Assembly (NCBI GenBank): GCA_951406725.2
Contig: OX597833.1
Coordinates: 48,050,001-48,114,000 of the forward strand
DNA length: 64,000 bases
Source: Octopus vulgaris
Lineage: Eukaryota
Reading direction: 5' to 3'
Position numbers and translations under genes: made by a program. How positions within the stretch are numbered: position 1 is the first letter of the stretch; every line of letters starts with the position of its first letter. Shown here in pieces: positions 3,789-62,100 of this stretch. The notes under the pieces were generated by a model. The model searched no databases. It was not told where the DNA came from and worked only from the letters and a program-made list of their open reading frames with translations.

Positions 3789-3829
3789 GCCCGTTGACGA
3801 GGGACAAACATCCCGAAACTAGTTCGAGC
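3789..3829 (+). ncRNA. Minimal type-I hammerhead ribozyme motif (C3U variant)
   Basis: gcccg-TTGACGA-GGGA caaaca TCCC-GAA-ACTAGT-T-cgagc; palindromic stem III; one stem I mismatch. Confidence 0.65.
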
Positions 3830-4588
3830 GTATCACTCAGGCTTGCGAGGAAGGGATGGCCTCCCTTTGCAAATACTCCAAAGACACAGATATTGTGTTT
3901 AGAGCCAGCTAGAGACGAAGATCTCTTGGGGCTATAAAGCTACAGTAACAACCCCCTCCCCAATGTGGTTAGCCATGATAAGATGGCTTCTATACTTTAC
4001 ATTACAGTATATAGTTCTTTCTTTATTTTAAAGACTTTGTAAGGTTGGAAAATTCTTGTTGTTCTCACGTGATTGAGTTAATACTTTTCTCCTAAAAATG
4101 ATTATCAATTTGAATTGCTAACCAGTAAATAATTTGCCAATTATATAATCTAGATTGCTACATTAACACCAGAACACGGGAATAACTTGTAAAAGGATTG
4201 AACAGAACCATAACATTTTCTTCCTTTGGTTTTTTATTTATTTATTTATTTACTCTTTTACTCTTTTACTTGTTTCAGTCATTTGACTGCGGCCATGCTG
4301 GAGCACTGCCTTTAGTCGAGCAAATCGACCCCCGGGACTTATTCTTTGTAAGCCCAGTGCTTGTTCTTTCGGTCTCTTTTGCCGAACCGCTAAGTGACGG
4401 GGACGTAAACACACCAGCATCGGTTGTCAAGCAATGCTAGAGGGACAAACACAGACACACAAACATATACACACACATACACATATATATATATATATAT
4501 ATATATATAGAAATTCGGGGTGAGTACTTGATAATTATAAGCACCTGTGTATACCGTTTGGTGGTGTAGGTGGTGGAGTAAATTGTGC

Positions 4589-59100: not shown

Positions 59101-62100
59101 GTGAGACTGTATCCTCCATGTTGGGGGTACTGCCTTGAAAGGTTTAGTTGTACAAATTTATCCCAGTACTTATTTTAAAGTCTGGTACTTAGTTTAATAA
59201 GTTTCTTTTTGTGGTCCCAAGTGATGGGGATGTACACAAGCCACTTTTTAGGCCACTAAGGGATGGAGATGTAAATAAGCCAAAATCAGTAGTCAAGTGG
59301 TGGTGGGGAACACACACACACAACTCTCTCTAACATACATACACACACACACACACACACACACACACACACACACACATATATATATATATATATATAT
59401 AAGAAATTAAAAAAAGGAAAATACGCACACTTACATAGTTTTAATATAATTTTTAATATATCAACCAGTTTCGCTATCGCTATTCATGATATTATGTTTT
59501 ACTTGTTTGCATATGTATTTTTTCTTAAGGAGAAATTTTTTCCATGTTGTGTGTGTTGAAATTCATGAGTGAATGACTTCACAAGTAGATAAGTATAGGG
59601 AGGTAATTGGTTATTGTTATTATTGTTATTGTTGTGGGTAAGGGAGATAACCGTTCAGCTTTCTGTAATGGGAGGAGAATTTTTAGGGGGCTGTTCTTCT
59701 GAAAAACCTAAACCTTGTGTATAATACGCACCCCTTCTCTAACTTGAGTCGTGTGTAATTAAGCCAGCAGCACCTAGTCATACAAACACTTCCATGCATG
59801 CGTAATATAATAATGGTGATGTTCTTAACTGTTATATGGGAATGTAAATATGTTTGCAAATTGTTTTTGTTACATGTTATTCTGTGTTCTGAATACTTTT
59901 ATTTTAATAAATGTTGCTTACTGCAAGTTATGGATGAATCTTTTATGAATTCATTGCTTTCAGGCTTAGCTTAAGATATTTTCGCACCCGACATCACAGA
60001 ACGCATCTGAATAAACATAGCCAGAGAGTAAATAGTAACTCGGACATTGCTTAGAAAATATTTTCTAGTATATAGGACGCACTAGGGAACTTGACCTTTA
60101 AATTTTGGGGAAAAAAATGCGGATATACTCGAGAATTTATGGTATAAGCAATTTATTGCTGATAAGTTTTAACAACAAAACCTTATATGGACCCCCGAGG
60201 GCCATATGAACCCAGTTGAGAGCCACTGATATAGATCATTTCCAGGAAATAAAATTATATTAGTCAAATTGTCACATACATGATTACCTCAACAGCCAAC
60301 AGTAATCTCATTTACAGCGATGAATATTCTTCTATATTCTTTTACTTGTTTCAGTCATTTGACTGTGGCCATGCTGGAGCAAATCGACCCCAGGACTTAT
60401 TCTTCATAAGCCTAGTACTTATTCTATCGATCTATTTTGCTGAACTGTTAAGTTACGGGGCTGTAAACACACCAGCATCGGATGTCAAGTGATGTTGTGG
60501 GGACAAACACAGACACACAAACACATACACACACACATACATATATATATACATATATATGACAGGCTTCTTTCAGTTTCCATCTCCCAAATCCACTCAC
60601 AAGGCTTTGGTCGGCCTGAGGCTATAGTAAAAGACACTTGCCCAAGGTGCCATGCTGTGGGAATGAACCCAGAACCATGTGATTCGTAAGCAAGCTACTA
60701 ACCACACAGCCACTCCCACGCTTATAGTATATTTTTTCTTATATTTCCAACATTGTTTTAGTCAACCCCAGTACTTATTTTTAAAAAAAAGTCTGGTACT
60801 TGATCTATTGTTTTTTTTTTGCACCAAACAATTATGTTATGTAGATGTAAACAAACCAACTTTGGTTATAAAGCAGCATGGGAGACAAAAAGTGACAACC
60901 GCAAACACCCCGCCCCACACACACACACATGATGGGCTTCCAAATAGTTTCTGTCTACCAAATTCAATCACAAGGTATTGGTCAGTCTGGGGTTATAGTG
61001 CCAGGCTTGTAAAAAAAACACATACTGAGGTCAATTCAATCAACAAAGCCCTTGAAGGTGGTGCCCCAGCATGGCCGCAATCCTATGACTGAAACAAGTA
61101 TAAGGTTAAAATAAAAATGGTAAATGGTATATTCTAAGGCGGCGAGCTGGCAGAAACGTTAGCACGCCGGGCGAAATGCTTAGCGGTATTTCGTCTGCGT
61201 TACGTTGTGAGTTCAAATTCCGCCGAGGTCGACTTTGCCTTTCATCCTTTCGGGGTCGATAAATTAAGTACCAGTTACGCACTGGGGTCGATGTAATCGA
61301 CTTAATACCTATGTCTGTCCTTGTTTGTCCCCTCTGTGTTTAGCCCCTTGTGGGTAATAAAGAAATAGGTATTTTGTCTGCTGTTACGTTGTGAGTTCAA
61401 ATTCCGCCGAGGTCGACTTTGCCTTTCATCCTTTCGGGGTCGATAAATTAAGCACCAGTTACGCACTGGGGTCGATGTAATCGACTTAATACCTATGTCT
61501 GTCCTTGTTTGTCCCCTCTGTGTTTAGCCCCTTGTGGGTAATAAAGAAATAGGTATATTCTTATTTTGTTATTGTAGGAGAGGGTATATGAACCACCGTC
61601 TGAGCCATTTACTTATACTACTTCTTACCGCAATGATTTTATTCCAAAGAAGAGAATACCTGCTGTTCTAGCAACATTGCCTAAAAAACCAAATATTATG
61701 GAATCTGATGTCAACAAGTTTGAGACTACTACAACAAAAGACGATTATAAAGCATGGCCACCTCAGATAACTTTGCCCTTCCACGAAATTTCATCTTCTA
61801 CCGGTAAGAAGTTATTATTTTTTTAATATGATTTTGTCCCCGAAAAGGCTTAAGGCCATTGTAGACTGGCATCAATGCTAGCGGGTGCAAAGAGCACCAT
61901 ACGAGTGTGATTGTTGACATTGTGGCTAACCGGCTTCCGTGCCAGTGGCACATAAAAGGCACCATTTGAGTGTGATCATTACCAGCGTCACCTTACTGGC
62001 ACTTGTGCCCCATGCATGTAGGGTGCTAAGGGCACCATCCAAGCATGATCGTTGCCAGAGCAGCTAACTGGCTTCTGTGCCAGTGATATGTAAAAGGCAT

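Follow-up and report, generated by a model that had tools for sequence, protein, structure and literature searches.

Why does one stretch of octopus DNA hold a handful of different hammerhead ribozyme motifs, several of them beside (TA)n tracts? The question concerns 64,000 nt of the Octopus vulgaris genome (contig OX597833.1, positions 48,050,001 to 48,114,000); this whole stretch is called the window, and coordinates are positions within it. The original prediction, made from the letters alone, placed six type-I hammerheads here, in short elements without open reading frames (ORFs) that would target microsatellites. The six motifs have the shape of hammerheads and very probably belong to the 3' terminal repeats of six families of Penelope-like elements (PLEs), each present in many copies. 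Dispersed PLE hammerheads near (TA)n are established biology; the new part is one family, in which a tRNA-derived module lies within the PLE 3' repeat. The families are named F1 to F6 after the hosts of the motifs predicted at 3789 (F1), 4589 (F2), 9838 (F3), 19587 (F4), 31809 and 32098 (F5) and 59458 (F6), and genomic loci carry L numbers. The features in the window are the following (UTR, untranslated region).

3552..4004, plus strand: F1 element, 1.26 copies of a head-to-tail unit of ~359 bp, ORF-less and non-autonomous, of PLE type
3788..3830, plus strand: F1 hammerhead with a U3.G8 core (3794-3800), a stem II of 4 bp and a palindromic stem III of 6 nt; cleavage predicted after 3824
4510..4585, minus strand: F2 inverted tail arm of the same insertion as the next element; the parent's tail matches from 4585 downwards
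4583..4709, plus strand: F2 element, last 127 bp of a putative Hydra-type autonomous PLE, between (TA)n runs, 100% identical to L303
4589..4666, plus strand: F2 hammerhead with a canonical core (4593-4599), a long stem II that opens with an A.C pair, and a palindromic stem III of 8 nt; cleavage predicted after 4662
9803..10107, minus strand: F3 element, 3' end of an old PLE-type family, ~80% identity
9838..9943, minus strand: F3 hammerhead with a canonical core starting at 9938, a stem I of 5 bp, a stem II domain of 77 nt and a near-palindromic stem III of 8 nt; cleavage predicted after 9843
19482..19875, plus strand: F4 element, a head-to-tail unit of 487 bp without ORF, here as a 5'-truncated copy with its tail, within (TA)n
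19589..19644, plus strand: F4 hammerhead with a canonical core (19592-19598), a near-palindromic stem III of 11 nt and a stem I of 3 bp; cleavage predicted after 19641
31728..32027, minus strand: F5 inverted arm including the tail, from the 3' end of a putative Penelope/Poseidon-type PLE
31810..31853, minus strand: F5 hammerhead, minimal, with its core at 31849-31843, an additional A following position 9 and a stem III of 4 nt, damaged
31929..32007, minus strand: F5 tRNA-derived module with a short leader that begins at 32007, the A box at 31994-31984 and the B box at 31951-31940 (coordinates counted by hand)
32028..32187, plus strand: F5 direct arm, cut within (AAT)n, hammerhead core 32102-32108 with a 3-nt deletion
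59393..59680, minus strand: F6 element, 3' UTR end of a putative Neptune/Nematis-type autonomous PLE, ending in (TA)n
59458..59492, minus strand: F6 hammerhead, A3-U8 core 59487-59481 (family-wide), 2-bp stem II, 6-nt stem III, predicted cleavage after 59463

Hammerhead-shaped motifs are present in the window, and above chance level. A strict type-I descriptor (canonical core, stem II of at least 3 bp, self-complementary stem III, stem I of at least 3 bp) is passed by three sites, with cores at 4593+, 19592+ and 9938- (first base and strand), whereas the chance level per window is 0.02 when the whole window is shuffled and 0.01 when 500-nt blocks are shuffled (100 shuffles each). The relaxed descriptor adds 3794+ (U3.G8 core, stem I mismatch), 59487- (A3-U8 core, 2-bp stem II) and 5696+, the last probably a chance match, giving six cores in the window against 0.68-0.98 in shuffles. 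The two F5 motifs, 31809- and 32098+, fail both descriptors in the window scan. In the first, a C of stem III has become T and the first pair of stem I is mismatched, and the second has lost 3 nt after the GAAA box; F5 members with an undamaged hammerhead are present elsewhere in the genome. Three of the six predicted hammerheads thus stand in strict form and two with variant cores, while both F5 copies are damaged.

Both descriptors were composed after the motifs were known, and the excess was therefore tested separately on 60 stretches of 10 kb (600 kb), taken at round coordinates on 30 chromosomes. Strict matches there numbered 15 against 0.25 in shuffled sequence (20 shuffles); they fall on 9 sites in 8 of the 60 stretches, and seven belong to one tandem array. 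Relaxed matches, for which T was also allowed as the inserted base, numbered 30 against 8.65, so that the excess over shuffles holds in both the window and the sample. The predicted self-complementarity of stem III is borne out as well: when it was not imposed, it was present in 7 of 8 real matches and in 2 of 14 obtained from 60 shuffles. Across the families, positions 3 and 8 of the core stay pairable, as C-G, U-A, A-U or U.G. Over the whole genome there is roughly one strict site in 67 kb, which makes the window, with three in 64 kb, somewhat rich; the predicted density of one hammerhead per 10 kb applies to the window only if damaged and variant motifs are counted, and does not apply to the genome.

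The hosts are repeats. A search of the animal's own genome (2.8 Gb, 227 contigs) returned 872 candidates for F1, 1,625 for F2, 562 for F3, 1,032 for F4, 3,450 for F5 and 1,474 for F6, of which 40 per family were scored. Aligned copies kept the motif in 31/37 (F1), 30/34 (F2), 11/37 (F3), 33/40 (F4), 7/46 (F5) and 28/33 (F6) cases, the F5 figure being biased because the query itself carried the deletion. The variant cores of F1 and F6 are found family-wide and are not peculiar to the window. All six families show variable 5' truncation, frequent inverted arms and two fixed 3' ends that differ by an optional tail, and in each of them the position of the hammerhead, close to the 3' end, is fixed. 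Main ends and tails were counted in 30 loci per family: 17 and 12 for F1, 15 and 9 for F2, 22 and 4 for F3, 18 and 11 for F4, 15 and 15 for F5, and 15 and 15 for F6, the last judged by eye; loci outside these counts had no recognisable end. The tails measure about 46, 72, 80, 100 and 34 nt in F1 to F5, respectively. Variable 5' ends, inverted arms and two 3' ends are hallmarks of PLEs (Craig et al., 2021, PMC8557442), and the tail region corresponds to the stretch between two internal start sites of the reverse transcriptase (RT) (Frangieh, 2024, PMC11167929). The original prediction of minimal PLE-type hammerheads in many families is confirmed in this respect.

Adjacency to (TA)n at the 3' end, for which the background is 3.5%, is enriched in five families and not in F5. 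It was seen at 27/29 ends of F4, 15/15 main ends of F2, 13/15 tail-less ends of F6 and 14/29 ends of F1, more weakly at 8/26 ends of F3, and at 1/30 of F5. The predicted targeting of (TA)n accordingly holds for F1-F4 and F6 and fails for F5.

Longer genomic copies of F2, F5 and F6 run upstream into frames for RT and a GIY-YIG endonuclease (EN), so that the short copies of these three are ordinary 5'-truncated PLE insertions. The prediction of ORF-less hosts is wrong for these three and holds for F1 and F4. The F2 parent has a 627-aa frame with YRDD and CxCX5C motifs, and DKT was seen in L184; the CxCX5C linker, DKT motif and (TA)n targeting are the marks of the Hydra clade tested here (Craig et al., 2021, PMC8557442). 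The endonucleases of F2 and F5 were recognised by motif and Pfam misses both. Upstream of F6 lies a CCHH-type GIY-YIG domain (PF01541, over the cut-off) with a CX4CxxC linker. This parent is 55% identical to an intact 781-aa RT+EN frame, itself in many genomic copies, and would be of Neptune or Nematis type, judging by the CX2-5CxxC linker before a CCHH-type GIY-YIG. Loci with the intact 781-aa Neptune-type frame include L336, L312 and L317, where another long open frame precedes it, and these elements carry a U3-A8-core hammerhead near the 3' end. An atypical hammerhead-like motif with altered core was also seen in the 3' UTR of a further Neptune-type family (L339, L342, L354 and L355).

Longer copies of F3 add about 900 bp of TG-rich non-coding DNA upstream, and no RT/EN frame linked to F3 was found within these roughly 900 bp of common upstream DNA at 17 loci. 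Because a similarly built hammerhead closes a locus with a Hydra-type endonuclease end and TG-rich UTR (L294:1-1350, minus strand), F3 probably represents the 3' UTR of an old element of Hydra type. The Neptune frame found upstream of F3 in L285 and L297 was rejected as its parent, since that frame already possesses an F6-like end. Nearby, at 10440-10542, lie inverted fragments of a further family with hammerheads (L221 type).

These observations are consistent with the following course of events. The RT-endonucleases of PLEs would have pasted in all six families; by analogy with PLE biochemistry, the GIY-YIG domain would nick (TA)n or other AT-rich DNA, and RT would start at two close internal RNA sites, which would account for the pair of fixed 3' ends. 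The inverted arms would arise from the joining of two cDNAs by their 5' ends. RT would read through an uncleaved or religated hammerhead, and the hammerheads are predicted to cleave slowly and only as dimers, via the self-complementary stem III. Minimum free energy (MFE) cofolding gave the full intermolecular stem III for 5 of 7 window motifs, namely F1-F4 and the intact F6, the latter with one slipped register.

Several points weigh against this interpretation. Firstly, an Rfam scan of the window returned 116 matches at E<=10, none of them a hammerhead; these are microsatellite-driven matches of miRNA type. Secondly, no autonomous partner for F1, F3 or F4 was found among 50 GIY-YIG loci, and the clade names of F2, F5 and F6 rest on motifs and not on a tree. 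Thirdly, sequence variation in the young families is mostly decay and not covariation. The MFE dimers of the two damaged F5 copies, and also those of L002 and L189, pair via stem II and not via stem III. The U3.G8 core of F1 and the A3-U8 core of F6 with its 2-bp stem II may be weak or dead, and cleavage and expression of all six motifs are predictions from sequence.

Some of these points fit another explanation, compatible with PLE ends as the source of the motifs, in which the hammerheads are present by descent and several of them, notably F1 and F6, are vestigial or serve as folded RNA signals that do not cleave. We take this possibility seriously without favouring it. The variant cores of F1 and F6 are fixed family-wide, and known PLE hammerheads are reluctant ribozymes that depend on dimers or protein: minimal ones cleave poorly (Cervera & de la Pena, 2014, PMC4209133), the hammerhead of an anole PLE needs protein (Frangieh, 2024, PMC11167929), of nine Xenopus retrozyme dimers eight failed to cleave (Li et al., 2026, bioRxiv 10.64898/2026.07.22.740005), and insertion by the one PLE assayed in vitro was unimpaired by hammerhead mutants (PMC11167929). 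On the other side stand the preserved 3:8 pairing across families and the covariation of stems in the F1 superfamily, which points to selection on the fold. In 12 related, pattern-selected sequences of this superfamily, a set that does not yield a probability, 91% of the cells are paired, against 10-49% in slid controls, and two-sided changes occur in 5 of 16 pairs. All six hosts are multicopy, as the original prediction expected, and covarying stems were found in the F1 superfamily only.

The family that goes beyond known PLE hammerheads is F5. Its inverted arm in the window consists, in order, of 20 nt of parent UTR, the tRNA-like module, (AAT)n, the hammerhead and the tail. The intact hammerhead motif of the family has 2,675 copies genome-wide (pattern control 0). 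Two loci, L191 and L413, extend into the C-terminus of the endonuclease, and translations of 30 EN-bearing loci show an RT (RVT_1) followed by a CCHH-type GIY-YIG endonuclease without a linker zinc finger, features by which the parent is assigned to the Penelope/Poseidon type. Among these 30 loci the A box is present in 28, A and B boxes together in 19, and a downstream hammerhead in 20. The parent is laid out as stop codon, ~30 nt, tRNA-like module, (AAT)n, 55-nt spacer, minimal hammerhead and 3' end. Compared with host tRNAs, the F5 head reaches best z values of 6.1-9.5 over shuffled host tRNAs; Arg comes first for 6 of 7 heads, in a ranking that covers the isotypes among 30 host tRNA loci.

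The 5' ends of the short copies were determined in 62 copies that hold the B-box region and were not chosen by upstream sequence. Thirty-six start in a 21-nt window at the module start, 5 extend beyond it and 21 stop inside, so that the module's 5' edge, some 13 nt ahead of the A box, is the starting point for 36 of the 41 copies that extend to it. Under constant truncation 14% would stop at the module start, whereas 88% do so (P about 1e-25, a value that is overstated, as both arms were counted separately and many copies lie at inversion junctions). The 5' truncations of F6, unlike those of F5, are smooth. Because 36 of 41 copies start at the module's edge, we consider it fairly likely that the module starts RNA polymerase III (Pol III) transcripts, which the parent's RT would copy into insertions of ~250-300 bp resembling short interspersed elements (SINEs). 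Transcription would begin at the A/B-box module after the stop codon. We also lean slightly towards the broader proposal that a Poseidon-type PLE makes its own SINE, from a Pol III promoter in its 3' terminal repeat, via a transcript of ~250-300 nt, with tens of thousands of insertions; the last figure follows from the presence of F5 in 7 of 60 random 10-kb stretches, one of them with coding sequence.

Other results count against a Pol III origin. ARAGORN at default settings found no tRNA in the window and its relaxed setting gave only noise, the F5 module stays below threshold in Rfam, and the pile-up of 5' ends coincides with an imperfect hairpin. These lead to the rival view that the short copies derive from truncated Pol II RNA of the parent, with the hairpin at the module edge causing cDNA fold-back or stalling, and with the module an old SINE that has no promoter role. 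The hairpin forms between the first bases of the module and the adjoining parent UTR, several head-to-head junctions fall exactly there, and the tRNA-like module is degenerate. A structural block would however be expected to stop RT at the module's 3' edge and not after read-through, the same start base is used in copies with unique flanks and in copies whose second arm ends at a different place, and F5 has kept its A and B boxes while T4 runs are absent from 36 of 41 full copies. This view is therefore rather doubtful, and we retain Pol III transcription from the module as the preferred reading of F5.

The short form of F5 shares with tRNA-derived SINEs a tRNA-related head with A and B boxes and a defined 5' end. 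Its 3' end, however, is a PLE end with an optional tail of ~34 nt, and not the A-rich or simple-repeat tail shared with a long interspersed element (LINE) partner that defines such SINEs. Such SINEs, among them octopus OR1 and OR2 (mentioned as CORE-SINEs in PMC4758252 and PMC4824008), likewise have an A/B-box tRNA head, a defined 5' end and a 3' end in common with an autonomous partner. F5 departs from tRNA-derived SINEs in that the partner is a PLE and not a LINE, the head is itself part of the partner, and the copies have a PLE tail and inversions in place of poly(A). The Schistosoma repeats Sm-alpha and Sj-alpha (PMC6765202) are also short retroposed repeats in which a hammerhead accompanies a Pol III promoter module, the promoter of F5 being predicted. 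They form tandem repeats, the promoter is left at the 3' end of cleaved monomers and a coding parent is not described in the available text, whereas the F5 module lies 5' of the hammerhead and inside the 3' UTR of an identifiable RT+EN parent. A tRNA-derived module in the 3' repeat of an autonomous PLE with a pile-up of 5' ends was not found in the literature searched, which covered neither Repbase/Dfam nor subscription papers; the structure may already be annotated in Repbase/Dfam. If F5 is driven by Pol III, it would link SINEs to PLEs with the parent still present; a SINE born inside a PLE and moved by it would also be a likely model for Pol III-plus-hammerhead repeats such as Sm-alpha.

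Two other forms of F5 were considered. A free-standing SINE without a coding parent was rejected, since the RT+EN parent is linked in the EN-bearing loci, and so was a head-to-tail circle, for which the tail-to-head junction was not seen. Many F5 copies share the 3-nt deletion, by which the cleavage site is lost, and frequently only one of the two inverted arms has it; it may reflect slippage or a subfamily, in a sample biased by the deletion-carrying query. At L208:5690-6200 the (AAT)n of an F5 copy holds a ~250-bp repeat seen also at 14226-14480 in the window, which suggests an (AAT)n-targeting element. At L026 an exon-like frame, which we take to resemble acetolactate-synthase-like proteins, lies about 0.9-1.3 kb upstream of an F5 copy on the opposite strand, and from this frame some F5 copies may be intronic elsewhere in the genome. 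For the window itself, the predicted intronic position was not confirmed: no host exon was found among 24 of 155 candidate ORFs scanned against Pfam, which gave two RT pieces of LINEs and two sub-cut-off matches that read as non-coding.

F1 and F4 are a different matter, since their units (~359 and 487 bp) are too short to encode RT. The first part of the F1 copy, 3552-3646, recurs at 3911-4004 with a period of 358-359, and a 37-nt inverted piece lies at 3520-3556. By eye, 10 of 30 loci show a direct fusion of the F1 3' end with the start of the unit, on the upstream side of the hammerhead, and 15 of 30 show one of the F4 tail (period 487; two overlapping or duplicated pairs included). Units homologous to F1, of 353-359 bp, form tandem arrays elsewhere in the genome, and this superfamily holds 1,757 canonical-core motifs genome-wide (reversed-pattern control 0). 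One example, at L189:2100-4760 (G000:C1:20.00 Mb), is a young 359-bp retrozyme-like array inside (TA)n with canonical cores, ~68% similar to F1 and made of 5 direct and 2 inverted hammerhead units. Both families fit non-LTR (long terminal repeat) retrozymes as non-autonomous PLE derivatives. As in those (PMC7229834; bioRxiv 10.64898/2026.07.22.740005), the units are ORF-less, 350-490 bp long and carry one type-I hammerhead each, with tandem arrays in the relatives of F1 and ends of PLE type. Unlike retrozymes, the F1 and F4 copies in the window have a single hammerhead and are monomers by the rule of Li et al. (2026), and their stem III is of the palindromic PLE type; at least two consecutive hammerhead units occur in F1 relatives but not in these copies.

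It is very unlikely that all six hosts are ORF-less retrozyme-like elements spreading via hammerhead-made circular RNAs. The circularly permuted, ORF-less units of F1 and F4 and the arrays of F1 relatives, with up to 5+2 units in the architecture of non-LTR retrozymes (PMC7229834; bioRxiv 10.64898/2026.07.22.740005), are as this explanation would have them, but for F2, F5 and F6 the RT+GIY-YIG frames upstream refute it. Permuted copies moreover need no circle, as head-to-tail junctions exist as DNA, and the hammerhead mutants of the assayed PLE mentioned above did not harm its insertion. Four contig data sets, including a probable DNA run, all span the F1 head-to-tail joint and cannot show RNA ends. 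An F1 relative beside a Neptune fragment in L354 was rejected as a link to an autonomous partner; it looks like a common (TA)n target. Chance matches in AT-rich repetitive DNA can be dismissed: the relaxed descriptor yields about one per window, of which 5696+ is probably an example, but strict counts against shuffles, the palindrome test, pattern controls of 0, the fixed 3'-end position and stem covariation refute this for the motifs as a whole.

Two further repeats touch these families. At 19878-20005, in the same (TA)n as F4, a seventh PLE-type family is represented by two 3' ends in inverted arrangement, cut within its minimal hammerhead; motif-bearing relatives are at L192, L244 and L108. 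A repeat at ~5885-6275 (copies L167 and L168), which we take to be Helitron-like, ends in a hairpin, and its segment 6144-6207 holds 70 bp resembling the 3' end of the F1 superfamily.

That PLE ends carry hammerheads has already been described, together with the palindromic stem III, the presence of many families in one genome and the truncated single copies, for the minimal hammerheads that metazoan PLEs hold in their pseudo-LTRs (Cervera & de la Pena, 2014, PMC4209133). The octopus motifs share with these the type-I fold, the palindromic or tiny stem III, the extra base between positions 9 and 10.1, the 3:8 covariation, the mostly single motifs in truncated PLEs and opposite-strand pairs 100-700 bp apart. 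They differ in the family-wide A3-U8 (F6) and U3.G8 (F1) cores and in stem II domains that in some cases reach 50-80 nt; a natural A3-U8 or U3.G8 core was not found in the literature searched, supplementary alignments excluded, where the available text gives only U3-A8. The parents resemble the EN-bearing clades of Craig et al. (2021, PMC8557442) in having RT followed by a C-terminal GIY-YIG, with CxCX5C and DKT in F2, a CX2-5CxxC linker in F6 and no linker in F5, and the copies share the partial tandems, inverted 5' copies, optional tail and (TA)n bias reported there. F2 is longer than the Hydra elements of that study (<3 kb) and has a 3' UTR of ~2 kb, the tails of F2-F4 reach 70-100 nt as compared with 30-40 nt, and the tRNA-derived module in the 3' UTR of F5 sets this family apart from those clades. 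With autonomous Hydra-, Neptune- and Poseidon-type elements, young intact frames, retrozyme-like units and four 3:8 core pairs, this genome is a test bed in which it could be asked side by side whether PLE hammerheads must cleave.

Other repeats in the window are a cluster of long (ATT)n tracts between SINE copies at 13127-15485, LINE-type RT fragments (RVT_1) at 26395-27724 and a short interstitial TTAGGG-like array at 46185-46242.

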